Of a stretch of 64,000 nucleotides of DNA, positions 1 to 13,148 are shown one piece after another. Position numbers and translations under genes: made by a program. Numbering within the stretch: position 1 is the stretch's first letter; every line of letters starts with the position of its first letter. Origin of the DNA: Parcubacteria group bacterium Gr01-1014_29 (GTDB lineage: Bacteria; Patescibacteriota; Minisyncoccia; Ryanbacterales; 2-02-FULL-48-12); the NCBI GenBank assembly GCA_007376195.1, contig VMFT01000002.1:1273-65272 (forward strand). The letters run 5' to 3'. The notes beneath the pieces were generated by a model, which was given only the letters and a program-made list of their open reading frames with translations, did not search any database and was not told the DNA's origin.

Positions 1-362
1 AACACAGAGAAATAATGAATAGCGGGGTGGGGTAAATTATGCGTGTTCAAACAAATACGAAAAGTCGGCATATAAATAGCCGCATCGTTTTTCTTCTCAA
101 ACACAGTTCTCCCACTTGCGTCACCGCTAAAGCTAGGGCGGCACGCGGTCGCGTAAAGCTTCGGAAGGACGCAGTAATCCTAAAGGACTGCGATTTACAG
201 TCGCCTTGCAAGGCGAGTAAATCGGGAGCATCCTCCACGATGGCACCCAAAAATAAGAAGGAAAGCGACTATATTTTTGGAGTGTGCCCGCATGGGTGCA
301 CCCAGAAAAGAATTGAACCAAGAAGTCCTTACGTGGTAGGGATTTTTTGGTATTATGAGCAT

Positions 363-995
363 ATGAATTTCGAACAGTCGCAACAAAATCCAAAAACTGA
401 AGTCATCGAAAAAACAAGCAACGATAGGCAATTTGCCTACAAACGCGAGGTTGGAGAATTGATTAAGGAGAGGCCGGGGATTCTGAAGGACGCCCTTAAT
501 CTTATTGCAGAAGCTGAAAAACTTGATGTAGGCAAGAGTATCGACGAAGACGACATAAAAGTTACTTATTTCCAAGAACGTAATTGGTCGCATAACTTTA
601 AAGTCGAAGTGAATGATAAATCATTTTTTGTCAGGAAAGAATTAGGCCGAGGGACTGGATTCAAGGCGATACGGGGATTTAAAGAAGCTGCACAGAGAAT
701 TGAAGGCAAGGAGGATGTGCGGCTCATTGATTACCAGCTTGGCTATACCGACAAGATGGGTAATGACTACTTTGTTGCGAAATGGGAAAATTTGCCCGTG
801 ATGGGAGATTACCTCAGCCGGGATTTGCCTGATGAAGAAAGAAAGTTTATCGCTCAAAAGTTAGAGTATGTATACGATACGTTTAAGGATTATGATGATG
901 TAACTACCGGAAACATGTTTTACGATCCAGAAAAGAAGCAGATCGTATTATTTGATCTGGAAAAGCAGGATATTTATGACAGTAATAAGGGGTAA
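363..995 (+). CDS. hypothetical protein kinase-like (PKL-fold) phosphotransferase
   Basis: Belongs to ORF 39..995. C-terminal motifs DVTTGN (catalytic D..N) and LFDLE (DFG-like) fit an APH/ChoK/RIO-type kinase fold. The in-frame stretch 39-362 is basic, low-complexity and GC-rich, so the true start is probably the Met at 363. Confidence 0.4.
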   Translation: MNFEQSQQNPKTEVIEKTSNDRQFAYKREVGELIKERPGILKDALNLIAEAEKLDVGKSIDEDDIKVTYFQERNWSHNFKVEVNDKSFFVRKELGRGTGFKAIRGFKEAAQRIEGKEDVRLIDYQLGYTDKMGNDYFVAKWENLPVMGDYLSRDLPDEERKFIAQKLEYVYDTFKDYDDVTTGNMFYDPEKKQIVLFDLEKQDIYDSNKG

Positions 996-1073
996 TACAT
1001 CTATGGGTTTTGAAGGGCCACAACTTCCACTAGAGAATACTCAAGCTACACAGGCGACAGAAAAAGTATTGTT

Positions 1074-1100
1074 GTCAAATTCACTTAAAGTGAATTTGAC
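1074..1100. promoter_or_regulatory. 11-bp perfect inverted repeat gtcaaattcac-ttaaa-gtgaatttgac upstream of abiEi; candidate operator or terminator
   Basis: Palindrome read directly; it sits about 60 bp upstream of the AbiEi start and is followed by TTGACA at 1136. Confidence 0.35.
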
Positions 1101-1156
1101 CTATTTTATGCCCTATATTCAGTAGTTTTAGCCTTATTGACAGCGGCGTTTCTGAT

Positions 1157-1795
1157 ATGATACACTATTGTCATACTATGAAAAGTAAGAATAATCTTCT
1201 AGAACAGCTCAAATCCTTACCCCATTTCGGGAAGAATACTGTATATCAGCTTGGCAAACAGTTGGGGCTCAAGGACTCTACGGTTAATACCTACATTAGC
1301 CGTTTTTTGAAGTACAAAGAAATTATCCAGCTCAGGAGAGGGTTGTATGTGTCTGCTGATTTTTTTGATAAAAATAGGAACGATGTTTCCTATTCATTCT
1401 ATCTTGCCAATGTCATTCGAACGCCGTCATATATCAGTTCGTGGGCGGCGCTTCAGTATTACAACCTTGCTACGGAGGCGATCCACTCTGTCACCTCGGT
1501 CACACCTAAAGTGACAAAAGAATACCAGACAAAGGCCGGTAATTTCGCATATCAGTCAATCAGCAAAAATTTTTTCGCAGACTTTTCTTTGGCAAAAGGA
1601 AAGTTTGATTTCTATATAGCTTCTCCCTCCAAAGCATTGTTTGATTTGCTCTATTTGAGGACCCGTCAGTTCAATAACCTTTCAGTAGAACAGATAAAAG
1701 CAATGGTTTCAGAATTAAGGATAGACATTGATGAAATGAGTAAGGAAGAGCAGGATAAATTTTATTCAATGATTAATAAATACTCCCATGAGTGA
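1157..1795 (+). CDS. AbiEi-family antitoxin / wHTH transcriptional regulator (type IV TA)
   Basis: N-terminal winged-helix region with the ...RLRRGLY... motif typical of AbiEi. The 3' end overlaps the next gene by 8 nt. Start could instead be the internal Met at 1178. Confidence 0.55.
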   Translation: MIHYCHTMKSKNNLLEQLKSLPHFGKNTVYQLGKQLGLKDSTVNTYISRFLKYKEIIQLRRGLYVSADFFDKNRNDVSYSFYLANVIRTPSYISSWAALQYYNLATEAIHSVTSVTPKVTKEYQTKAGNFAYQSISKNFFADFSLAKGKFDFYIASPSKALFDLLYLRTRQFNNLSVEQIKAMVSELRIDIDEMSKEEQDKFYSMINKYSHE

Positions 1796-3071
1796 ACAGA
1801 TTTCAACAATTCTAAAACGTAAGCTTGATGATCTTGCCGCCTACGGCAGTCTTGATGCGGAAACGCGCCGTAATGCTCTGAAAGGAGAGTTGCAGTTTTA
1901 TGTTCTCAATTTCATTTACCATCACCCGGAATACAACGCGTGGATCATGTATGGCGGTTCGGCACTTCGTATTATCCATGAGCTTGACCGCATGTCAGTT
2001 GACTTGGATTTTGAGATTTCTCATGCGGTAACGGAGAAGTTTTTAGAGGAATTGAAAAAAGAAGTTGAGGATTACTTCACTAATACCTTTGGCGCGGGAG
2101 CTGATTTTCTTACGATAAAAATAATCACCGGTAGAGGTCTGCTCTTGAAGTTCCACGTTGGTGAAGAGCTAAGCTCCGGACACCCCTCAAAGCAGGTGCA
2201 TGTAAAAATTGATCTCAATCACTTTGTCGCTCCCAAGACTGTCACTGAACGTCGGCCGATAAACCGCAATCAGTTATCCTTTGTGATCATCACCTACAAT
2301 ATGTCCTCGCTTATGGCGAGCAAGCTTGCCGCTATTTTCCTCCGTGGTACCCGTGGCGTGGGAGAAGCAACTTACGAGGAAAAAGGACGCGATATTTATG
2401 ATCTCCTTTGGTACATGAATAAAAAAGTAGTGCCAGACTTCGATTACCTCATAGCCAAAGGCATTGACGCGAAAGACCCTCGCGCGCTTTTCGATAAACT
2501 CACGCTTCAGATCAACAAAGTGAGCGATAAAAATCTTGAGCAGGACCTTGAGCCTCTGTTTGTGGATAAGACGTATATTAGAAATTTGCTCAAGAACTGG
2601 CGAGAGAGCTATCTACGACTTTTGGATGAATATAAAATTCGCAACATTAAAGAACTCGAGAGTATTGGTATACATCAGGACTTTCGCACAGATACTTTTT
2701 CTTTCGTGTATTGGTATACGACGGAGGACGGCGGATCGATCAGGGTTGTTTATAACCTAAGCGAGTACTGGATTATATTCGGCGAGGGTAATTTGCAGGT
2801 TGAAATAGATAAGAAACTGGAAGAGAGGATGGATTTCAGGAGCAACAGGGTTAGCAGTCGTCCGACTTCGCAGGATAGGCTTAAGCAGTACGCGACCCTG
2901 TTTTATCAGAAAACGGAAAAGTACTTCAAGAAAACGAATCGGATCATGCTCGGGGACAGCATTATCACTAAGATTATTCGGATAACGGCCGATAATTTGA
3001 ACCAGAAGGAACAGATCGTGCTTAATAAGTCGGCACTGCTTTCTTGTGAGCTTGATGACTTACTGAAATAA
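1788..3071 (+). CDS. AbiEii/AbiGii-family nucleotidyltransferase toxin (DUF1814) with about 130-aa C-terminal extension
   Basis: Motif MYGGSALRIIHELDRMSVDLDFE matches the GG(T/S)ALR...S.DlDF nucleotidyltransferase signature of AbiEii. Translationally coupled to AbiEi. Confidence 0.6.
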   Translation: MSEQISTILKRKLDDLAAYGSLDAETRRNALKGELQFYVLNFIYHHPEYNAWIMYGGSALRIIHELDRMSVDLDFEISHAVTEKFLEELKKEVEDYFTNTFGAGADFLTIKIITGRGLLLKFHVGEELSSGHPSKQVHVKIDLNHFVAPKTVTERRPINRNQLSFVIITYNMSSLMASKLAAIFLRGTRGVGEATYEEKGRDIYDLLWYMNKKVVPDFDYLIAKGIDAKDPRALFDKLTLQINKVSDKNLEQDLEPLFVDKTYIRNLLKNWRESYLRLLDEYKIRNIKELESIGIHQDFRTDTFSFVYWYTTEDGGSIRVVYNLSEYWIIFGEGNLQVEIDKKLEERMDFRSNRVSSRPTSQDRLKQYATLFYQKTEKYFKKTNRIMLGDSIITKIIRITADNLNQKEQIVLNKSALLSCELDDLLK

Positions 3072-3088
3072 ATTTTAGGAAAAGTTTG

Positions 3089-3334
3089 TTACAAAATTTT
3101 ATGACTTGAAGGAAGCCACTCTATGAGTTTTTTGCGATGCTTGTCAATTGACCATTCGTCGCTGTTTTTGAAAAGAGAAGGATAAAGCGACTGAAATTTT
3201 TTCAGTGTAGCAACTGATGCTTGAGTAAAATTTGCCGGTATGGTGCTATTGTACATTTCCATAAAAACAGGCAGAGTTGTTGCGATTTGATTGATTTCTA
3301 GATCGTTTTTTTTCTTTCCCTTCATGTTTATCAT
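3089..3334 (-). CDS. hypothetical small protein (81 aa)
   Basis: ORF only; AT-rich; no recognisable motif. Confidence 0.3.
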   Translation of the reverse strand: MINMKGKKKNDLEINQIATTLPVFMEMYNSTIPANFTQASVATLKKFQSLYPSLFKNSDEWSIDKHRKKLIEWLPSSHKIL

Positions 3335-3383
3335 ACTATCATAGCTTACTCAAAACATCAATCTCTTTATGTGTATGCATAAA

Positions 3384-3425
3384 AAATGCCCGGGAGAAAT
3401 TGTTCTCATCGGGCTTTTTGCTGTT
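3384..3425 (-). terminator. rho-independent terminator (minus strand)
   Basis: On the minus strand: gcccgatgagaacaatttctcccgggc stem followed by attttttat. Confidence 0.4.
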
Positions 3426-3817
3426 ACTTTTTGCCGCTGCGTTTTTTGGCATAGCAGCGGTTCAGGAACGATCTCGCTACTTCCCACTTGGTATGCGGGT
3501 CATTTGTTATGTAGTTGGGAATTACACCACGCTCATCAGTGGTAGTACCGTCCTTAAAAAATATGCGTCCGTTTGTAAATTTTAACACAGCACCGTCTGT
3601 AAATGTGTGTGTTATTTGCATTCTTTACTGTCGGCAATACCATATCGTTTGCAATGCGGATCATAACGCATTCATGCACCGCTTTTTTATCCAGCGGATA
3701 GAGCCACTGCTCTTCAAGTACACGCAGCAACTCGTCATAAGTGGTTTGGTCGCCACTGCTTATGCTAGTACTGCTCACAATTGTTGCGAGCACGGCCAAT
3801 ACGATAAAGCGCTTCAT
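3424..3817 (-). pseudogene. small secreted protein split over two frames at a T6/A6 homopolymer; apparent frameshift or sequencing error
   Basis: ORFs 3554..3817 (signal peptide MKRFIVLAVLATIVSS) and 3424..3621 overlap in different frames across the aaaaaa run at 3558-3563. A terminator follows directly at 3424. Confidence 0.3.
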
Positions 3818-4070
3818 GGTTCACCTCGCGTTTGTCAGATTTGTTCTTGATATAGCATACGGAAATATTTTTGTAAATGTCAACAAAGGGAGTTGACATT
3901 ATATTTATAAAATGTTAGCACTGGAAATGGTATAGAAGCAAAAATCAAGCTCTTTGACATATACAACTAGGACTTACGTGTTTGTGTATATTCTGGCTTT
4001 TTCTTTTCTGTCATTCTCGCGCAGGCGGGAATCCAGGACATTGTCAGTAATAGAAAAGGAGTGATTGGAA

Positions 4071-4889
4071 ATGAGCACAGCAAGGACACGCAAAGCAACA
4101 CACCAGGGTTCTAAACATCTCCAGCTTGGGTTTAATAACCAGGACGGGGTACTTTTGGAGTCTTTCAATATACCGGCTTTTGGGAAACAATATACCGTTG
4201 GCATCGTATGTGACGGCTGTACTGGGCTTCCTGGGTTTAGTAAAACCGAGGTCGGCGCGAGTATTTTGCCGGTTTTTGCGTTCGGACGGTGTCAAGAGTT
4301 CTTGTGCGCCGGTCTTCCGCTCGCGGATATACCGATGGTACTGTTTCAATCATGCACAGAATTCTTGCGCGATTTGGCGCAGAAGGTTATGCCCGGAAAT
4401 ATTTATTGGGGATATTCGGAAGTGTTGAGCACCGCTTTGGCAAAACTCAAAACGGGTCGCAAGGGTTGGGACAGTACTACACGCTTTCGCATCGACTATC
4501 TTTCGGCGACGCTGCTTGGTTTCGTTACAGACGAAACGCAATTAGTTACGTTTACGGCTGGCGACGGCATCGTGCTGGTAAACGATGACATTCGCGTTAT
4601 TGACCAGGACGACAAACCAGAATATCCGGCGTCTTCGATCAACAGCCCGGGAAAGGGATTTGACGTACATGTCTTGAGTCTCTCCGAAGTGCAGAGAGTT
4701 GCCATTTGTTCGGATGGGTTAAAGGAACTTATGCAGGACCAAAAGTTTGTGGACCAGATGTTTTCGTTCAGTCCCGGACTGTTCGGATTGCAGATTCTCC
4801 TTAACAATACCTACAGCGAACGTGATCACCTTATGGAGGATGATTGTACGGCGGTTACATTCGAAAGGAGCGATGAGCCATGTACCTAG
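4071..4889 (+). CDS. PP2C-family Ser/Thr protein phosphatase
   Basis: PP2C metal-binding motifs: NQD, GIVCDGCTG (xxDGxGG-like), CSDGL, DDCTAV. Strong RBS aaaaggag 9 nt upstream of the ATG at 4071; the ORF track starts at TTG 4065. Confidence 0.6.
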   Translation: MSTARTRKATHQGSKHLQLGFNNQDGVLLESFNIPAFGKQYTVGIVCDGCTGLPGFSKTEVGASILPVFAFGRCQEFLCAGLPLADIPMVLFQSCTEFLRDLAQKVMPGNIYWGYSEVLSTALAKLKTGRKGWDSTTRFRIDYLSATLLGFVTDETQLVTFTAGDGIVLVNDDIRVIDQDDKPEYPASSINSPGKGFDVHVLSLSEVQRVAICSDGLKELMQDQKFVDQMFSFSPGLFGLQILLNNTYSERDHLMEDDCTAVTFERSDEPCT

Positions 4890-6844
4890 TGAATGGCAAG
4901 AAATATGATGAAGATCCAAGCCGCAAACTTGGTGGCGGGTCTGAAGGTTCGGTGTATCCATTCGACGGCGACCCGGATAATACATGCGTCAAACTTTGGC
5001 ATCCAGTTGATCCGAAAGATCGTTCCGGACAGCAGATTGCGTTATACCGTGCAAAGAAAGTAAAAGCTGTTACGGGTCTTAACCTTCATTTGCCAGAACA
5101 GTTCATTCTCCCAAAACTTCCCGCACAAGACGGTAAGGGAAATATTATTGGCTATCTCATGCGACGCGTGCCGAAAGAGTATGTCAAGTTGATGAAGTTG
5201 CTTCAGCCAGCGTTTCGAACCAACAATTCGATTGGGTTGAAAGATATTGCGTTGTTGTACGCTTTTTTCTTCGAGGACTTGGAGGTACTTCAGAAGAATA
5301 GTATCTCGGTGGGGGACGTAAATCTTGGCGGCAACATGGTGAGATTCACCTCGAAAGGGATTGAGCGCGTATGGGTGGATACCGATAGTTGGAGCTATCC
5401 AGGATTTCCCTGTCTCGCTACAACGGAAATGTTCTGTCATCCGGATTTGTATGCAAACCTTGGGTCTGGTGGCAAATTTGTGCCGCCTATGCACAAGCAT
5501 GACTGCTTTGCATTCGAGGTGGAATTTTGTCTGCTGGCTCTGCCGGGAGCTCACCCATTTCGAATGGGGTTGCATCCGAGCGTTACCAGTCTTCAGGAGC
5601 GCGCAGAGGCGGGGATTACCATTTTCGATTCTAGTGTAGCTTATCCAAAGTACTTGCCATCTCCAGATGTGCTAAGTGATGAGTTGCTTCACGAACTTAT
5701 TCTCCGGTTGAAGCGGAAAAAGGAGGAACCGCTTCCTGCCAAACTGCTTCGGGATTTTGCCGAACAGTTGGTCGTATGCGCGAAGTGCAGCGAGCAGTAT
5801 CATCGCTCGCGTTCAAATTGTCCGAAGTGTCAGGAGAAAACCATAGTCGATCTAAAGAAATTGATCGAGCTCATAATCCAAGAAGTCTATGCCGCTTCGG
5901 AAGCGATTTTATACACGCAAGTTGTCGACAGTACACTTTTTGTGGTTTGTCGAGTTAGCGGGATGATACACATCGTAACTATTGATGAGAAAGGAGGTGT
6001 AGATACACTTGTAACTTTCATTTCAGCTCTCCGTGGTATGCGGTACCGATTCTTTGGATCACACCTGGTTGTGTGTCCTGATGTGTACGCTGATGCGCCC
6101 GTGCCGATTCAGATTTATAGGATTACAGGTAGCACGTTGCAGATGGTGCAGAATATAACAACCAACGGTCTCGAAAACGAGTCGGCGGTATTCGATGTGT
6201 CGTCACGGTTCATGTACCGTACGGCGGGCAACACTCTCCTGTGCGGGAAATGGATGTTTGGCGGCAAGGTCTTTGGTGAAGATCCTGTTACACAGGTGCA
6301 TCAAACGCAGAGCTGGTTTACTGTGGATCGCACATCCGGATTAGATCGGGAAGCGATATTCGGTTATGACCGTGCTCTTCGCGATATGCAATGGTTTGTT
6401 GTGAAGGGAGACAAGGCCGGAGAGAAGTTCGATTTTCACAACGTTACTCTTCCTGCAATGCGCGCGGGGGAAAGACTGGAAGATTTTGCAGTGGATTTCG
6501 GTGCGGATGCTGTGCTGTTGGTGCGGCAAACCCTTTATCAAGGCCGTCAATATATTCGGTATTCCATCATTGCTCTTAACGGGGTTGTGGTGGAAGATCG
6601 TGTGTTGAGGAGCGGAGATAATGGGTATGACGCATGGGAGAGTATTCACGGCAAATTGTTCCAAAAATCGAGCATTCTTCATGTAACTCCCTTGGGCGTC
6701 GTAAAACAGACGCTCCTGAACAATGCCTATGAACTTGTGGAGGATACGCGCGGTGTGGTGACGGCGGAGGATTGGCTGTTTCGGTTCAACAAGAGTGTCG
6801 GCATTGCACGACGTGGTGCCGTGCTGACAATGAGAAAAAAGTAA
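4880..6844 (+). CDS. atypical Ser/Thr protein kinase-like protein with internal Cys4 zinc ribbon and large C-terminal domain
   Basis: Gly-loop LGGGSEGSVY, Lys in VKLW, catalytic-loop-like SVGDVNLGGN, DFG-like VDTDSW, zinc ribbon CAKCSEQYHRSRSNCPKCQ. Overlaps the PP2C stop by 10 nt; RBS aaaggag. Confidence 0.55.
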   Translation: MYLVNGKKYDEDPSRKLGGGSEGSVYPFDGDPDNTCVKLWHPVDPKDRSGQQIALYRAKKVKAVTGLNLHLPEQFILPKLPAQDGKGNIIGYLMRRVPKEYVKLMKLLQPAFRTNNSIGLKDIALLYAFFFEDLEVLQKNSISVGDVNLGGNMVRFTSKGIERVWVDTDSWSYPGFPCLATTEMFCHPDLYANLGSGGKFVPPMHKHDCFAFEVEFCLLALPGAHPFRMGLHPSVTSLQERAEAGITIFDSSVAYPKYLPSPDVLSDELLHELILRLKRKKEEPLPAKLLRDFAEQLVVCAKCSEQYHRSRSNCPKCQEKTIVDLKKLIELIIQEVYAASEAILYTQVVDSTLFVVCRVSGMIHIVTIDEKGGVDTLVTFISALRGMRYRFFGSHLVVCPDVYADAPVPIQIYRITGSTLQMVQNITTNGLENESAVFDVSSRFMYRTAGNTLLCGKWMFGGKVFGEDPVTQVHQTQSWFTVDRTSGLDREAIFGYDRALRDMQWFVVKGDKAGEKFDFHNVTLPAMRAGERLEDFAVDFGADAVLLVRQTLYQGRQYIRYSIIALNGVVVEDRVLRSGDNGYDAWESIHGKLFQKSSILHVTPLGVVKQTLLNNAYELVEDTRGVVTAEDWLFRFNKSVGIARRGAVLTMRKK

Positions 6845-6871
6845 CCCCAAACCCATGAAAGGAGTACAGTA

Positions 6872-7945
6872 ATGACTACTGTCAAAATTGCGGCACACAT
6901 GCCGCTTCTCTACACGCCCAAGTTCTGGGCTCCGGCGAAAGCTTATGAGAACTACACGCCGGATATCGAGGGGGCCAAGCTCGAAGGCGCTGAATACGCT
7001 CGTAAGCATGGTCTCGAGCCTGCGTTCAGACTGTTGGAGCGGCCGGAGGGTGCCAGTATGGCATTTCTTACAGACTTACAACAGGACTTCCGTGATCATG
7101 GAAGATTGCCGGTTACTGGTACGGATGATGTTGTCCTTCGATGTGCCTCGCGCCTCATCAATGGATTTATTTCCGGCCATTATGCGGGGCTGAAACGTTC
7201 TAAGGATGGGCATCCGCCGGTGCATGTTTCGTTTGGCACATACTTTCGAACGCAAACAGGGGAGTTGTTCGATCTGCGGACACGCAAAGCATCTATCCTT
7301 GCGTTGGAAGATGATAAAAAGTGTATTTTCAAGGCTACATGTTTCGATCCGAGTGATGGTTCTCCCGTCGACGCGGGATACATTCAGCCCATGTACAAGC
7401 CACATGAATGTGTGGCATACAACCATTATCTGGAAAGTACAGGACAAGCACCGCAGTGGGCATTTGCCCAGCATTGTGAACTTGGTACGGACGGCGAATC
7501 GTTCCATCCGCTCATTGTCGAGGCAGTTGCTTTCGCGAGCGGGTTACGGAGCTTTGTTCCGGGACTGGTTAGCAAGGGGCATATCATGGAGTGGGATTGG
7601 TATGGCCCGCTCTGTTCGTGCGGAGGATATTCGGAGGATCCAAACATTGTGCCGGTAATTACCCACCCGCAAGGTGGGTTCCAGAAAGACATTGTCGATG
7701 GGTTCAAACCCTTTCGGAGTGTCGAATTCTTTGGGGTCGCGGAAGACTTCTGCGATTATTGGATGAAGAAGCAGAGCCGGTGGTATTTCAGAGGAACGGA
7801 GTTTCTCAAAAAGATGGTATTCGTCGAAGATGGCACTGCACCCATCGTCCCGAATGCCCAGCATGTGAAGACCCAGAATGCTGAAGCGAGGGCCGAAGGC
7901 GTGAAGTTCATTAAGCACGATACACCTTTCGCGCAATCGCTGTAG
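6872..7945 (+). CDS. isochorismatase-family cysteine hydrolase, nicotinamidase (PncA)-like, with about 100-aa internal insertion
   Basis: AFLTDLQQDF..G.LPV.G.DDVV...RLI aligns to PncA ALLLVDLQNDF...LAVPEGD...RLI. FHPL, the catalytic-Cys region GVAEDFCDYW (cf. GLATDYCV) and VFVEDG (cf. VITDG) are all present. RBS gaaaggag. Confidence 0.5.
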   Translation: MTTVKIAAHMPLLYTPKFWAPAKAYENYTPDIEGAKLEGAEYARKHGLEPAFRLLERPEGASMAFLTDLQQDFRDHGRLPVTGTDDVVLRCASRLINGFISGHYAGLKRSKDGHPPVHVSFGTYFRTQTGELFDLRTRKASILALEDDKKCIFKATCFDPSDGSPVDAGYIQPMYKPHECVAYNHYLESTGQAPQWAFAQHCELGTDGESFHPLIVEAVAFASGLRSFVPGLVSKGHIMEWDWYGPLCSCGGYSEDPNIVPVITHPQGGFQKDIVDGFKPFRSVEFFGVAEDFCDYWMKKQSRWYFRGTEFLKKMVFVEDGTAPIVPNAQHVKTQNAEARAEGVKFIKHDTPFAQSL

Positions 7946-8029
7946 AGAAGTGCATCATCGGAGGCGGTGACTCTCATTGCACCGCCCCCAATTTTTCATC
8001 AACAACCAAACAGTCAAAGGAGAAAATCC

Positions 8030-8905
8030 ATGCCAACAAAATCAGTTGACCCAACAATCGCGGCATTCTTCAAAGATCCTGATGCGAGCAGTGTTGTGGG
8101 ACTTAAGGCATCTCAAATCGTTGCGCCGATCGTGCGCGGCGAAGACGTGAGGCCGGAAGAGCTTATGATGGGTGGCGGCTTGCGCATTGTCCAGTTTGTA
8201 CTCGATCGTTCTCCGAGCATGGAGCCGGTGGGCAACATGCTTCGGGAGGACTTCAACACAGAGTTCGTACCGGCGGTGAAAGAGGCACGCGAGGATGATA
8301 TCAGTGTTCTGCGTATCGGCGGCACGTCGTTTTCAACCGACATCGAGCCGATTTGGAAGGGAAAAGGTTTATCCGGAGTCACTGAATATTATCATTCCAT
8401 CGATAATCTTCCAGCACTTACTCGCGCTGAATACGATCCGGAGAGAGGCTACACAACGGCACTTCATGATGCTATCCTCGACGGTACGGCACGTGCTCTG
8501 AAGTTTGCCGCGGACCAACAGCAAAAGACAGGTACGGCGCCTGATGTGGATGTGATTGTCTTAACTGACGGAGCCAATAACTGTAACCCCAGAGATCCTG
8601 CGGTAGTGAAAGATATGGTTGTGGGCGCAAACAAACGGCGAGTGCGGTTTATCTTCTTCTACTTCGAAACAGGTGACGGTCTCGAAAACCCGAAAGACTA
8701 TGCCGTTAGTGAGCTAGGTTTTGACGGTGAGAATGTCATGGAGTTCAAACAGGGGCCAGGCGAAACGAAGGAAGAACGCCGCAAGCGTTTCCGGCGCATG
8801 ATGCGGGTGATGAGCAGGGTCTCGGCATCCAAAGGCATGAGCGCTGTTCAAGCGGCCGCGACGCAACAAGTTGCCACCGCAACTGATGACGAAGATCTTG
8901 TCTAA
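8030..8905 (+). CDS. von Willebrand factor type A (vWA) domain protein, TerY-like
   Basis: MIDAS motifs DRSPSM (DxSxS), TALHDAI (Thr) and VIVLTDGANN (D). RBS caaaggag 8 nt upstream of the ATG at 8030. Confidence 0.6.
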   Translation: MPTKSVDPTIAAFFKDPDASSVVGLKASQIVAPIVRGEDVRPEELMMGGGLRIVQFVLDRSPSMEPVGNMLREDFNTEFVPAVKEAREDDISVLRIGGTSFSTDIEPIWKGKGLSGVTEYYHSIDNLPALTRAEYDPERGYTTALHDAILDGTARALKFAADQQQKTGTAPDVDVIVLTDGANNCNPRDPAVVKDMVVGANKRRVRFIFFYFETGDGLENPKDYAVSELGFDGENVMEFKQGPGETKEERRKRFRRMMRVMSRVSASKGMSAVQAAATQQVATATDDEDLV

Positions 8906-8917
8906 AGGAGTAGGACA

Positions 8918-9157
8918 ATGGCTTCTTTAATACAGCTCACCATGCTTGCTGAACTTACAGTAAAAGAAGTGAAAGCAAGCAAACTTCCTCTGGAGGAAGT
9001 TGATCTTGTGGAAGTCGCGGCTATCCTCATTCACGCAAAGCACCTTGATGGAAATACTGAGGGTCAGGCCGAGGTGAGTACGGAAGGGTGGCCGGATGTG
9101 TCCCTCGCATGGAAATCCCGTTATAGAAACCTTGCGAGACAGTTCTTTCAAAAGTAA
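8918..9157 (+). CDS. hypothetical small acidic protein (79 aa), last gene of the operon
   Basis: RBS taaaggag; 12 nt after the vWA stop; followed by a terminator. Confidence 0.4.
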   Translation: MASLIQLTMLAELTVKEVKASKLPLEEVDLVEVAAILIHAKHLDGNTEGQAEVSTEGWPDVSLAWKSRYRNLARQFFQK

Positions 9158-9172
9158 GCAGTTCATTTACCG

Positions 9173-9198
9173 GACCTCCCGAGAGGTCCGTTTTTATT
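9173..9198 (+). terminator. rho-independent terminator
   Basis: ggacctcccgagaggtcc hairpin followed by gtttttatttg. Confidence 0.5.
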
Positions 9199-9547
9199 TG
9201 GCATCCTTGCTAGATCAGTAGTTATATGATAAAAACCCGGAGGTTATTTTCAAGAGCGACGCGTTTGAGGGCCGCGAGCACGAGATCATCGGAAAGGAAT
9301 ATGCAAAGAGAATTAAAATTGTCCGCGATGTTGTGGACCATTCGTCCACAACGGAAATTTTAAGAGAAGCATCAAAACGACCTTATTGAGTTGGCGTGAT
9401 ATCAACGGTGAAACATCACATACACTAGGCATATGATCCCACTTTGAGCAGTGGGATTTTTTTCGTCGTAATATTCCATTCAATAACTGTTCGTTGTTTT
9501 TTAATCATTAGTTTTCTATTATTGTGATATGTCATACTGGTATTTCC

Positions 9548-9668
9548 ATATGAATCCCGTTAGAGATCGCAGACGCATAAAACTGATGCTAATCAAAAAG
9601 CAAAACAGTATTAATCACCATAAACACATAGGACGCGAGGCTTGTTCGTCTGCGTCTTATCTCTAACG
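9548..9668. repeat. long imperfect inverted repeat (arms cccgttagagat..cgcagacgc / gcgtctgcg..atctctaacggg) enclosing about 60 nt and ending at the HD-gene start codon
   Basis: Arms read directly; the right arm ends 2 nt before the ATG at 9671. Confidence 0.4.
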
Positions 9669-9670
9669 GG

Positions 9671-10267
9671 ATGAACAAAATTTTTCGTCATTTTCTTGAT
9701 CGCTCGCTTTCGCATGTGGTGCGCTTTAACAGCACTCCTCAGCAGTTTGGGGAATCAGTGGCGGAGCACTCGTTTTATGTTGCATATTTCACAAGCATTT
9801 TGATTTACTTTTTGCGCGAGGCAGGGGAAGAGGTGGACGAGGCGCGCGCGTTAAAAATTGCCCTTCTGCATGATGCGGAAGAGAAATTTAGCGGCGATAT
9901 TCTTACGCCGTTTAAGCATTACAACGAGGATGTGTTGCGCGCGATTCGCAAGGTAAATCAGGAGACGATCTCGTTTGTGTTTGAAGATTTACCTCCGGAT
10001 TTAAGCGCGGAATTTATCGCGTTGTGGAACGAAGATGTTAATCTTACAACCAAAGAAGCACAGATTGTCAAAACTGCCGACAAGGTATCTCTCCTCGCAA
10101 AATGTTACGAAGAAATTAAGATCGGCAACGAATTTTTCCTCCCTATTTATGAACGGGAACTGGGAAGACTCTCCGCGCTTTCATGGCCGTGGTGGCGAAA
10201 GATCAAAAAGCATATCCTTCCCCACCGCCGGACTCCCATACCGCTTCCGGTGGACCATTTGCATTAA
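9671..10267 (+). CDS. HD-domain phosphohydrolase, YfbR-like 5'-deoxynucleotidase
   Basis: SVAEHSFYVAY ... ALLHDAEEKFSGDI match the HD motif and YfbR-like context. Confidence 0.55.
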   Translation: MNKIFRHFLDRSLSHVVRFNSTPQQFGESVAEHSFYVAYFTSILIYFLREAGEEVDEARALKIALLHDAEEKFSGDILTPFKHYNEDVLRAIRKVNQETISFVFEDLPPDLSAEFIALWNEDVNLTTKEAQIVKTADKVSLLAKCYEEIKIGNEFFLPIYERELGRLSALSWPWWRKIKKHILPHRRTPIPLPVDHLH

Positions 10268-10362
10268 ATAAAAGCGACGATTGTTGTCACACCACTGGAG
10301 AGTTTTTGGTTTCCAAGTTTTTTCGCGGTCGCATATACTTCTTGGAAATGAGAAATAATATG

Positions 10363-10563
10363 TTAAAACCGTGAGGCACGGCTGTGTCTCGAGAATCTAT
10401 TACTTCGTCCACTGCTACCTCTGCTAGAAAAACCGCGTCCAAAAGCAGGTCGGGTACGCGTGCGCGGGCGCATTACTTTTTGAAGCGCCAGGAGCTCTTC
10501 CGAGACGCTCTCGGGGTACAGATGCTTGACAGCAGTGGCAAGTAAGGTATATGATAAAATCAT
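10363..10563 (-). pseudogene. duplicated 3' fragment of the DEAD-box helicase gene (C-terminal tail copy)
   Basis: Encodes ...ESVSEELLALQKVMRPR..., identical over 17 aa (about 50 nt) to the C-terminus of the helicase at 11773..12993, then diverges. Confidence 0.45.
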
Positions 10564-10584
10564 ATTATAATATCATATAAATAT

Positions 10585-10806
10585 ATGACTACCTTATCTG
10601 TGCCGGTGCCGCCAAAGTTGGAGGAATTGGTAAATTCTTTGGTGAAAAGAGGGTATGGGGCAAATAAAGCGGATGTTGTGCGAAAAGCCCTCGAGCTTCT
10701 TGCGGAGGAAGAAGCCATTAAGACCGTGCGGGAAGCGCAACAGGAAGTGCGCGATGGTAAAGTGCTCAAAGGAGACATTCGCAGGCTTATCAAGAACATG
10801 CTGTAA
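10585..10806 (+). CDS. ribbon-helix-helix type antitoxin (ParD/CopG-like)
   Basis: 73-aa protein with a predicted N-terminal beta-strand plus helices; stop overlaps the toxin ATG (TAATG). Confidence 0.5.
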   Translation: MTTLSVPVPPKLEELVNSLVKRGYGANKADVVRKALELLAEEEAIKTVREAQQEVRDGKVLKGDIRRLIKNML

Positions 10807-11069
10807 TGATCGGATTGCAATACGCGCCAAAGTTCTTGAAGCAGTTGAGTAAGCTGGATCCTGCTCTCCAAAAAGAGGCGTTTGCGAAGATTGAGCTCTT
10901 CAAGGACAAGAAAAACCATCAATCCCTAGAAGTACATAAGTTGCAGGGAAGGCTTTCCGGCAGCTATGCATTCTCGGTCAATTACAAAGATCGGATTGTT
11001 TTTGATTATGTTTCAAAAAGCGAGGCTGTTTTGCTTGCTATCGGGGATCATGATGTTTATAAAAAGTAA
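10806..11069 (+). CDS. RelE/ParE-family toxin (mRNA interferase)
   Basis: ...LQGRLSGSYAFSVNYKDRIVFDYVS...AVLLAIGDHDVYK shows RelE/ParE hallmarks. Confidence 0.6.
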   Translation: MIGLQYAPKFLKQLSKLDPALQKEAFAKIELFKDKKNHQSLEVHKLQGRLSGSYAFSVNYKDRIVFDYVSKSEAVLLAIGDHDVYKK

Positions 11070-11180
11070 TGAACTAGATTGTTTATCAGTGTGTATAAAC
11101 ACGCTTTTCTGTTGCATCTCGGCTGTTTTTATGGTATCTTCTTTGTGAACTACACAGAATAAATTTATAGGAGGTGCATA

Positions 11181-11672
11181 ATGGTAGTCATTGTTGTCAA
11201 AGATAATCGTCCGTTGAAGTTCGCGGTTGCTGTTGTAATTAGAAGTATAGATCGGAAAATGCTTTTTGTTGTACAACGGCCTCCCGACGATGATGAGTTT
11301 CCCGACATGTGGGGATTGCCTTCCGCAAGTGCGAAGCGTGGTGAGCTTCCCGAAGAAGTTGTGCGGCGCATTGGACGCGAAAAGCTCAATGTAGAACTCA
11401 CGCCGAATTGGTTTCTTGGCGTAAAATATGCCGAGCGAACTAATTACAAACTCATCTTGATGGATATGTGCGCTGACATTGCGGAAGGTGCTCTGAATGT
11501 CCGAATTGCAAACGTTCGCAACCGCGCAGTACCTGGTACAAAGTATGTTGACTGGCGGTGGGTGGAGGGTCTGGACATTCTCAAAGAAGCCGCGTCGCGC
11601 GGTTCCATCTGTTCGCAGATTCTTCTGGAGTATGAAGGTGTGGACTACCCAGACAAGAGGCACTTTAATTGA
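11181..11672 (+). CDS. Nudix-like hydrolase (degenerate Nudix box)
   Basis: GLPSASAKRGELPEEVVRRIGREKLNV approximates the Nudix box Gx5Ex7REuxEExGu. Confidence 0.35.
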   Translation: MVVIVVKDNRPLKFAVAVVIRSIDRKMLFVVQRPPDDDEFPDMWGLPSASAKRGELPEEVVRRIGREKLNVELTPNWFLGVKYAERTNYKLILMDMCADIAEGALNVRIANVRNRAVPGTKYVDWRWVEGLDILKEAASRGSICSQILLEYEGVDYPDKRHFN

Positions 11673-11772
11673 TATCGTTTCCAGCCCCCACGCTCATTTG
11701 AGTGTCGGGGCGTTTTCTTTTTCTACGCTCTTGCCGGTTGGCGGATTTTTTCGTGTTGTATGCTATGTCAAA

Positions 11773-12993
11773 TTATCTATGAGGGTTGGTTCGGGGCGCG
11801 CGGTTGGTTCTTACGAATGGGCGCGGGCCGCCGCTTCGAGGTGAGAAACTGCGCTGTGTCGGCCAGCTGGCGGATTGCTGATGTCTGCTTGTGCGCCCGC
11901 GCGGACGGGGGCGCATTACTTTTTGAAGCGCCAGGAGCTCTTCCGAGACGCTCTCGTGGCGTTTTACCAGAAGTGTTTTACGGATAAGGCGCTCAATAGC
12001 GCGAATTTCTCCTTGCTGGTCGGGGGTGGCCAGAGATATTGCCTTACCCTCCCTACCCGCGCGGCCCGTGCGCCCGATGCGGTGCACGTAGTCTTCAGAG
12101 CTTTCGGGTATGTCAAAATTTACCACTAACTCAATATTGACGACGTTGATGCCACGCGCGGCTATGTCAGTAGCCACAAGCACGCGATATTTTCCTTTTT
12201 TGAACCCTTCCAGCGCTTCACGGCGCTGGCCCATTGTTTTGTTTGAGTGTATTTCTACAGCACGTTCCCCAATGTCGCGGAGGTGCCGCGCGAGCTTTGA
12301 TGCGCCATGTTTTGTGCGCGAGAATATCAGAATGGTGCCCGCATGTTCCCGGAGAAGCGTTTCAAGGAGGGAAATTTTTGACTCCTTTTTTACTATATAT
12401 ATTTCCTGCTCTGTCGCTTCTATGGTGGTGCCCGCGGGCGCGACCTCAACTCGTACAGGGAGCGTCATGTGACGTGTGGCAATGGATACGATGGTATCCG
12501 GCATGGTTGCAGAAAACAGCATGGTTTGGCGCTTGCCTGGCTCCGGCAAGGCTTCAAAGATGATGCGTATTTGCGGAGCAAAGCCCATGTCAAACATGCG
12601 GTCGGCTTCGTCAAGAACCAGAATGGTTATGTTGCCAAGCGAGACAGTTTTTTCTCCAAGATGGTCAATGAGACGTCCGGGAGTCGCGATAATAATGTGA
12701 GGGCCTTGCCGCAGCTGGTCAATTTGACGCGGCATGGATTCGCCTCCTATGAGTACTGCGGTGCGAAGTCCCAGCGGATGCCCGATTTTCTGAAGCATAT
12801 CGTTTACTTGCAAGGCAAGTTCGCGCGTGGGGAGCACCACGAGCCCGCGTGCGCGGTGCTCTGCGATGCGTTGAATCATAGGTATGCCGAAGGCAAGGGT
12901 CTTGCCGGTGCCGGTCTGCGCGATGCCGATAATGTCTTTTCCTTCGATTGCCGCAGGAATAGATTGGTGTTGAATGGGGGTTTCTTGTGTCAT
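11773..12993 (-). CDS. DEAD-box ATP-dependent RNA helicase with RG-rich C-terminal tail
   Basis: Motifs AQTGTGKT, PTRELA, DEAD, SAT and HRIGRTGRAG. Start taken at the Met preceding TQETPIQ; the ORF track extends to 13077. Confidence 0.75.
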   Translation of the reverse strand: MTQETPIQHQSIPAAIEGKDIIGIAQTGTGKTLAFGIPMIQRIAEHRARGLVVLPTRELALQVNDMLQKIGHPLGLRTAVLIGGESMPRQIDQLRQGPHIIIATPGRLIDHLGEKTVSLGNITILVLDEADRMFDMGFAPQIRIIFEALPEPGKRQTMLFSATMPDTIVSIATRHMTLPVRVEVAPAGTTIEATEQEIYIVKKESKISLLETLLREHAGTILIFSRTKHGASKLARHLRDIGERAVEIHSNKTMGQRREALEGFKKGKYRVLVATDIAARGINVVNIELVVNFDIPESSEDYVHRIGRTGRAGREGKAISLATPDQQGEIRAIERLIRKTLLVKRHESVSEELLALQKVMRPRPRGRTSRHQQSASWPTQRSFSPRSGGPRPFVRTNRAPRTNPHR

Positions 12994-13148
12994 ACATGTG
13001 TGACCCGATTTCCTTTCGTGGGTCACACATCTTGCGAGAGATGACACAAATAAGGCGCGAGTCTTTAATAAAAGCAATTATACCACATTCATATATATTT
13101 TGCAAGGACTGATGGCTGGGGCCTTTTTGATATACTATAAATGGTACC

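Follow-up and report, generated by a model that had tools for sequence, protein, structure and literature searches.

Two alternative 3' ends of an RhlE-like helicase gene, sharing a 48-nucleotide block, flank a toxin-antitoxin operon and a Nudix-like gene in a Parcubacterium

We describe here a locus at which the gene for an RhlE-like DEAD-box helicase is found with two complete alternative 3' ends. It lies in a stretch of 64,000 nucleotides (nt), called the window in what follows, which comes from the metagenome-assembled genome (MAG) of Parcubacteria group bacterium Gr01-1014_29 and whose helicase is identical to the protein P0001 (TSC80764.1). The two ends share a sharp block of 48 identical nt and that block alone, and the DNA between its two copies carries a toxin-antitoxin (TA) operon and a Nudix-like gene. 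We tentatively favour, with a confidence that stays somewhat below even, the view that the two copies are the junctions at which a non-autonomous DNA entered the 3' coding part of the helicase gene by a duplicative insertion of the Campbell type, which would have been a one-off capture driven by homology. The features that make up the two ends are as follows.

11957..12996, minus strand: body of the RhlE-like DEAD-box helicase, with an ATG start at 12996 and the domains PF00270 and PF00271
11909..11956, unstranded: core copy B, 48 nt, exact, within the helicase coding sequence
11773..11908, minus strand: tail B, now in use by the helicase, RPRGRTSRHQQSASWPTQRSFSPRSGGPRPFVRTNRAPRTNPHR, 44 codons and a stop
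10466..10513, unstranded: core copy A, 48 nt, exact
10363..10465, minus strand: tail A, a stranded alternative C-terminal tail, RTRTRPAFGRGFSSRGSSGRSNRFSRHSRASRF and a stop, in frame with core copy A in an open reading frame (ORF) at 10363..10563
10274..10290, minus strand: terminator-like hairpin, 73 nt beyond the tail A stop, a weak candidate (5 such sites found against 2.7 expected)

The repeated 48-mer, GGGCGCATTACTTTTTGAAGCGCCAGGAGCTCTTCCGAGACGCTCTCG, occurs exactly twice in the window, with a spacing of 1,443 bp. No further copy exists there with up to 3 mismatches, and there were 0 in 100 dinucleotide shuffles. When the partly matching flanks are included, the repeat reaches a length of 60 nt (10457-10516 and 11900-11959), with 93% identity. 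An earlier note on this DNA, made from the sequence alone, had described a direct repeat of about 50 bp, and this description holds, since the 48 nt are there twice without a mismatch, no chance copies are expected and two assemblies agree. The same note had placed the second copy at 11907, 1,441 bp from the first, and had taken it for the coding end of the helicase; it actually starts at 11909, which gives the spacing above, and the 44 codons and stop of 11773-11908 still follow it.

The arrangement of the repeats is genuine and not an assembly artefact, as two independent assemblies and a k=31 graph agree on it. Indeed, a 30-kb ENA contig assembled at k=139 (L081) has an identical arrangement across the repeat region. 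Among the Logan unitigs from run SRR8863434, one (L082) covers 10484-11938 and another (L089) ends at 10495; these unitigs end where they do because a repeat of 48 nt necessarily breaks a k=31 graph.

Within the helicase, core copy B encodes ESVSEELLALQKVMRP. Core copy A had been described as a truncated copy that still encodes ESVSEELLALQKVMRPR, which is correct, but the same frame then runs on for 33 codons to a stop of its own at 10363, a point that had been overlooked. The copies are therefore not simply host sequence that was duplicated, as had been proposed, but two different helicase 3' ends, identical over 48 nt, each with its own in-frame tail and stop. Both tails are rich in arginine, and they differ from one another in length, 33 codons for tail A and 44 for tail B, as well as in sequence. 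Beyond the 48 nt, the similarity of the DNA is not significant on either side, the observed score being reached by 494 of 2000 shuffles on the tail side and by 1459 of 2000 on the body side. In nine related helicase loci, the segment corresponding to the core is identical at just 32 to 42 of the 48 positions, so that the 48/48 identity of the two copies is not due to coding conservation.

Tail B is similar to the tails of related helicases, foremost that of P0002, with which it shares ...RTNRAPRT, and none of 300 shuffles scores as well. The best match of tail A is the tail of P0006 (RPAFNRGFSHRSG), a marginal one that 21 of 300 shuffles equal, and tail A also resembles the short tail of the helicase at the related locus L001, marginally above what composition gives. 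By composition, among all 32-amino-acid stretches in six frames of the 64 kb, it is the second most helicase-tail-like (fraction 2e-4), after tail B. These tails are hypervariable: the helicases of L099 and L001 share 91% identity in the body and 39% in the tail. The body of the window helicase is nearest to those of L086 (84%) and L001 (83%); both of these have short tails that are similar to tail A (41% each), and tail B resembles a tail of the L099 type (48%). Two different tails that follow a sharp shared block are the signature of a recombination in which an incoming gene end meets the resident one and the tail is replaced.

Several simpler origins of the repeat could be discarded. No Rfam family is found at the locus at E up to 1, there is no tRNA within 20 kb, and the core does not fold in any striking way (z = -1.5), which rules it out as an RNA gene, a tRNA fragment or a structured attachment (att) site. 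A target-site duplication left by a transposon or insertion sequence is typically of 2-15 bp, and here the repeat is of 48 nt, with no terminal inverted repeats and no transposase; in particular, no inverted repeats exist at the insert ends, 10514 and 11908. This origin is excluded in any case because the insert terminates in frame with a tail whose homologues are helicase tails. That the repeat arose by tandem duplication and later divergence is rejected as well, as the core is 100% identical yet its flanks keep no residual DNA similarity.

The DNA between the two cores (10514-11908, 1,395 bp) consists of the TA operon, the Nudix-like gene, a spacer and then tail B. Its features, apart from tail B, are listed below.

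10526..10595, plus strand: promoter and palindromic operator-like region of the TA operon, TTGACA-18-TATGAT (11/12 matches), conserved in L110 and L107
10585..10806, plus strand: ParD-like antitoxin, putatively of the ribbon-helix-helix (RHH) type, 73 amino acids; TIGR02606 at 27.8 bits, E 1.9e-6, below the cutoff of 46.2
10806..11069, plus strand: toxin of the RelE/ParE superfamily, 87 amino acids; PF05015 at 18.5 bits (cutoff 27) and TIGR02385 at 16.2 bits (cutoff 27.9)
11181..11672, plus strand: Nudix-like protein, 163 amino acids; PF00293 at 22.8 bits against a cutoff of 21.1
11673..11772, unstranded: spacer between the convergent Nudix-like and helicase genes, with terminator-like hairpins

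The three genes that had been noted between the copies, for an RHH antitoxin, a RelE/ParE toxin and a Nudix-like protein, are thus there, though the support from family profiles is weak. That they make up a cassette in the sense of a single unit, as had been supposed, is not supported: the TA operon recurs alone elsewhere, at 83% and 75% DNA identity, and the homologues of the Nudix-like gene stand in unrelated housekeeping contexts. A conserved RHH-RelE-Nudix module of three genes was rejected for this reason, the TA operon and the Nudix-like gene being separate everywhere else. The GC content of the insert (0.37-0.51, against about 0.5 in its neighbours) does not distinguish it.

The comparison with relatives shows how the surroundings of the helicase have changed, and it depends on one small gene.

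3089..3334, minus strand: sORF81 (81 amino acids), directly downstream of the helicase in relatives and here 8.4 kb from the helicase stop

This gene starts 10-50 nt past the helicase stop in L083, L084, L085, L086, L092, L095, L096, L099 and L102, it is 62-70% identical to its counterparts (found, for instance, at L083 9377-9613, L086 4316-4552, L099 4345-4617, L100 3405-3641 and L001 5416-5634), and it may be co-transcribed with the helicase. No TA or Nudix gene follows the helicase in close relatives. Other inserts are found at the same junction, of 0.48 kb with a coiled-coil gene in L100, of about 4 kb in L001 and of about 2 kb in L007. The helicase and sORF81 are thus ancestral neighbours between which different DNA was taken up in several lineages. 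Since sORF81 is displaced by 8.4 kb in the window and different inserts stand elsewhere, the 3' flank of the helicase is an insertion hotspot.

In the window, the whole of 3335-11772 (8.4 kb) lies at this junction and is lineage-specific, so that an insertion on the scale of 1.4 kb, as had been assumed, does not describe the site. The stranded helicase end splits this DNA into a part of 7 kb (3335-10362), with genes for a PP2C phosphatase, a protein with a von Willebrand factor A (vWA) domain and an HD-domain protein, and the part of 1.4 kb. Relatives keep the gene order on the 5' side of the helicase (DUF2914, a 210-amino-acid protein, IMPDH, ribonucleotide reductase) and not on the 3' side. 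Of the capture that the earlier note had proposed, insertion as such stands as the best reading, because relatives have sORF81 10-50 nt after the helicase and neither TA nor Nudix genes there; that it was recent is unproven, no empty site having been found.

The event that we favour can be set out in a few steps. A small DNA, most likely from another Parcubacterium, would have arrived as a circle, or would have been copied in by template switching. It would have carried the 48-nt core, tail B with its stop and terminator, the Nudix-like gene and the ParD/RelE TA operon. A single crossover inside the core, between the resident gene and the incoming molecule, would then be the simplest route to the order body, core, tail B, cargo, core, tail A, in which the helicase consists of its own body, the core and then the tail B that came in. 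The resident end, that is the core and tail A with their stop and terminator, would be left stranded 1.4 kb away, as a promoter-less stump of 151 bp beside the gene of an HD-domain nucleotidase, which tail A indeed adjoins. Recombination of the RecA type could have done this, and so could a template switch, if the recipient was the template for both cores. The unit is non-autonomous, as it encodes no recombinase, and it is the lack of a recombinase and of a second instance that makes us favour a one-off capture: an event driven by homology is more likely here than a dedicated site-specific element.

As a Campbell crossover joins the incoming tail to the body of the gene, tail B would be the incoming one and tail A the resident one. 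This polarity is consistent, weakly, with the terminator-like hairpin after tail A, which is possibly the original helicase terminator, and with the fact that the relatives nearest in the body have short tails of the tail A kind. Since tails are hypervariable, a near-related donor with an identical core and an unrelated tail is plausible. Once in place, the TA operon probably stabilises the insert, because a deletion across the 48-nt repeats removes the antitoxin gene; such a deletion would restore a helicase that ends in tail A and has 423 amino acids, counting from the intact form of 434.

Several points weigh against this course of events. Tail B is the better conserved with relatives and so may itself be native. 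A native tail should stand beside sORF81, and tail A does not, so that an additional insertion of 7 kb (3335-10362) must be assumed. Homologous recombination over 48 nt is inefficient, and the donor must match the core yet differ in the tail. The insert is also composite, as the TA operon moves alone, and there are just 9 nt between the core and the left edge of the operon; with the operon beginning so close, the history may involve several superimposed events. Finally, an empty site, a donor locus, a circular junction and a second instance are all absent from the data that were searched.

These searches covered several kinds of data. None of about 90 related helicase loci has a duplicated helicase tail, and in the loci around helicase homologues of 80 GTDB species, 3'-side synteny and tail duplication are both absent. 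The closest homologues of the helicase (P0006, P0009 and P0010) have different contexts on their 3' side, and its protein cluster at 90% identity contains forms with tail B and no others. In exact-protein look-ups, the Nudix-like, RelE and HD-domain proteins returned the same strain alone and sORF81 had no record; no same-species variant of the locus is on record. A degenerate pattern of the core gave 12 single matches in JGI metagenomes (7 ordinary helicase 3' ends and 5 chance matches) and no match in viral contigs, and plasmid and phage records gave no match either; for core-bearing elements, these negatives stand within a Patescibacteria search space that is limited. The empty sites that the earlier note had suggested looking for in related genomes were sought, and none turned up: in relatives the 3' end of the helicase is free of inserts, but they are just 80-84% identical and have a different downstream gene. 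It is for want of an empty site, a donor or a second instance that we infer both the mechanism and its polarity.

The first alternative to be considered, an unlikely one, is a decayed or trans-mobilised site-specific element of the cis-mobilizable element (CIME) type. The 48 nt would then be the att core of a tyrosine or serine recombinase encoded elsewhere, and the element would target the rhlE 3' end and keep the gene functional by means of its replacement tail. The sharp edges of the identity block and the in-frame replacement end are what one would expect from it. The size of the unit (1.44 kb) also falls within the 1.2-13 kb of classical CIMEs, which are found in streptococci at the 3' ends of fda, rpsI and rpmG and have kept their att sites and lost their recombination genes (PMC7563491). 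Likewise, in Escherichia coli the icd gene extends into the prophage e14, and a C-terminal pseudogene, icdC, is left to mark the other end (PMC13626634). However, no Pfam integrase or transposase domain was found in the insert, in the ORFs tested at 39-10267 or in the genes tested past the helicase up to 17428. The helicase tail is not duplicated in any other of the related loci, the window has no further core, nor do viral contigs, plasmids or phages match it, and the core lacks the notable fold already looked for (z = -1.5). The TA operon and the Nudix-like gene, moreover, do not have this repeat where they are found elsewhere.

The likeness to e14, and to phage 21, at icd goes further: the insertion lies in the 3' part of a housekeeping coding sequence, the element brings a replacement end, the displaced native fragment stays as a pseudogene at the far end, and excision would recreate a chimeric gene (PMC13626634). 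The window has the identical direct repeats, and it has an in-frame replacement end and a displaced end, although which of the two is native is what we infer from the crossover; an integrase of its own it does not have. The e14 element is of 15 kb and has its own site-specific excision system, whereas the unit of the window is of 1.44 kb without a recombinase. The replacement end of e14 is near-identical to the native one (two amino-acid changes), whereas those of the window are unrelated in DNA past the 48 nt and have 44 and 33 codons. With CIMEs, the window shares a small integrase-less unit, direct repeats that stem from a protein gene's 3' end, and cargo genes; like them, the unit has both of its repeats and is devoid of genes for recombination and transfer. 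It differs in that CIMEs descend from integrative and conjugative, or integrative and mobilizable, elements with the same att site and usually stand in tandem, and no partner, occupied or tandem site was found here.

A second alternative, which we consider quite improbable, reverses the polarity. Tail B would be native, and the stump would be the relic of a second, foreign helicase that came with the island on the side of the HD-domain gene and was truncated by a deletion or when the TA operon arrived, and gene conversion would have homogenised the last 48 nt of this relic with the resident gene. The strong conservation of tail B with relatives is in keeping with this, and so are the edges of the identity block: the right one is 9 nt from a TA operon that relocates independently, which fits a truncation there, and the left one is where the helicase orthologues lose similarity. 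A sliding-window scan of the helicase body for breakpoints also places its 3' 250 nt relatively nearer to the L083 lineage than its middle, which is a weak hint of mosaicism and nothing firmer. Gene conversion, however, requires flanking homology, and none is left on either side; no relative has an HD-domain gene beside the helicase, and this history takes more steps than a single crossover.

It is also conceivable, and we give this little credence, that the unit is a living, non-autonomous 'tail-swapping' micro-element of the Candidate Phyla Radiation (CPR), which would be mobilised in trans by some recombinase, would target the 48-nt site of RhlE-like helicases and would carry its own tail together with an addiction module. 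Each insertion or excision would thereby switch the helicase from one RNA-binding tail to a different one.

Very improbable in our view is that the 48 nt are an artefact of a rearrangement junction, a templated filler from microhomology-mediated repair, and that the in-frame arginine-rich ORF is a coincidence. The region is indeed much rearranged between relatives, as the TA operon and HD-domain gene of L110/L111 are apparently on the 5' side of the helicase (from an 87-nt leader match), and the similarity of tail A to known tails is marginal (the 21 of 300 shuffles above). Against this, tail A is, after tail B, the most helicase-tail-like stretch of the window, and its frame is exactly that of the core. 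That the assembly is a chimera of strains with different helicase tails, two in number, is hardly credible, for although a 48-nt repeat is not resolvable by a k=31 graph, the k=139 ENA assembly and the NCBI MAG span both repeats identically and all junctions are inside unitigs.

The one-off capture that we favour can also be set beside other known arrangements. Genomic islands at the 3' ends of tRNA and tmRNA genes are flanked by direct repeats of the target's own 3' end, and the target gene is restored by a copy that the element bears. The target in the window differs in being protein-coding, with a repeat internal to the coding sequence, and there is no integrase. TA modules stabilise the cassette arrays of chromosomal integrons, and the mosAT module is found in the SXT element. 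Similarly, the window has a type II TA operon in an insert that is deletable through flanking repeats, and its loss would be counter-selected; the differences are that the stabilising role here is presumptive, that the repeats are not integron attC sites and that there is no integron integrase. Lastly, in homology-facilitated illegitimate recombination and in template-switch capture, a one-sided anchor joins foreign DNA at a sharp block of homology with no recombinase. This process usually deletes recipient DNA rather than duplicating 48 nt, and in the present case the donor was not found.

The TA operon has the usual characteristics of type II systems, namely two small overlapping genes, of which that for the antitoxin leads, and a promoter with a palindromic operator. 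The overlap of the two genes is of 1 nt (TAATG, 10804-10808), and the promoter is strong and sigma-70-like (10526-10555), with overlapping palindromes at 10540-10595. The toxin belongs to a large family in Patescibacteria, of which 28 of 32 members match PF05015 (HigB-like); the profile of this family matches YoeB and HigB structures weakly (E 0.01-0.07), and its members are named RelE/StbE in the source records. The operon as a whole (about 10523-11072, from the -35 box to the toxin stop) recurs in two other contexts with no flanking repeat. In L110/L111, at 83% DNA identity and with an antitoxin that is 93% identical, it has a small membrane-protein gene on one side, and DUF218 and then an HD-domain gene on the other; in L107, at 75% DNA identity, the context is different again.

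Downstream of the operon in L110 (850-2736), the HD-domain gene that follows DUF218 is 78% identical to that of the window, and the start of contig L111 is an 87-nt match to the 5' leader of the helicase. This suggests that the TA-HD block of L110/L111 is on the 5' side of the helicase, which would imply local translocations around this gene. No TA remnant was found upstream of the HD-domain gene of the window, where the order of L110 would place it, and a 15-nt 'repeat', D2, that was considered as such a remnant looks like a shared promoter -10 motif (TATGATAAAA). A different TA pair (a YafQ toxin and DUF6364) stands with a NADAR-domain gene on the 5' side of the helicase in L086 (1830-2864), and TA modules cluster around the helicase gene in the clade.

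Within the operator region of the TA operon, a promoter-like site on the minus strand (TAGTCA-16-TATAAT, 10564-10591) brackets the stump together with the hairpin at 10274-10290. The stump could thus give rise to a short transcript, about 280 nt long and divergent from the TA promoter.

The Nudix-like protein belongs to a family whose profile matches MutT/Nudix structures of the PDB (E 2e-5), and its Nudix box is degenerate. The canonical box is GX5EX7REUXEEXGU. Here the sequence is ...GELPEEVVRRIGREKLNV, with RRIGREKL, in which RIGREK replaces REUXEE and two glutamates are lost. This variant is a property of the family, as RRIG(R/L)EKL is found in 8 of 8 members and RRIGREKL in 7 of them, within the aligned pattern WGLP...GELPE..VRRIGREKL. 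Because the conserved variant box does not have the two catalytic glutamates, a noncanonical activity is possible: the protein may not be a canonical pyrophosphohydrolase, and it may instead be a binding or otherwise divergent protein of the Nudix fold. Its homologues are few (46-51% identity) and adjoin genes for SRAP-domain proteins, ThiI, RsmF or response regulators.

The helicase gene itself extends in total over 11773-12996 on the minus strand, and a longer ORF, initiated by TTG and reaching 13077, runs into a conserved 5' leader (about 12990-13085). This leader holds a conserved hairpin, GTGTGACCCACGAAAGGAAATCGGGTCACAC, which is 80% conserved in L111 1-87 and is also visible in the read-through translations of relatives; it may have a regulatory function, and it has no Rfam match. 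In the NCBI MAG, the helicase is without 81 bp, in frame at 12981/12982, that are present in the ENA assembly of the same strain (L081 4468-4548). The 27 amino acids concerned, AEKTGFDGLGIAPGLLRILEQFKFTVP, are placed just upstream of the Q-motif PTPIQ. The difference could be a population variant, a deletion at a microhomology (ACC) or an assembly error, and if the deletion is real, the helicase of the window may be impaired.

To the left of the insert, we find AbiEii, PP2C, the vWA protein, the YfbR-like HD-domain nucleotidase and several genes with no assignment, and to its right housekeeping genes. The AbiEii nucleotidyltransferase toxin (PF08843, 74 bits) is preceded by a 212-amino-acid ORF that has no Pfam match and is possibly its AbiEi partner, and the same flank has a cluster composed of the PP2C phosphatase, a 654-amino-acid protein, a 357-amino-acid protein and the vWA-domain protein. 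This 3' flank of the helicase (1157-3071 and 4065-8905) looks like a defence or accessory island.

The locus is a known kind of genome-island scar, in an uncultivated bacterium of the CPR, and not a new system. The mobile DNA of Patescibacteria is poorly charted, and their genomes are small and thought to be streamlined. In this setting, the locus provides a scar of gene acquisition that is resolved to the base pair, in which a housekeeping RNA helicase appears to have exchanged its basic C-terminal tail. As a single instance without a recombinase, it is mainly useful for annotation, in that it points to a pseudo-3' end of the helicase, a composite islet and an insertion hotspot. If the event were recurrent or reversible, it would mean an integration site and a route of variation for helicase tails in an uncultivated phylum.

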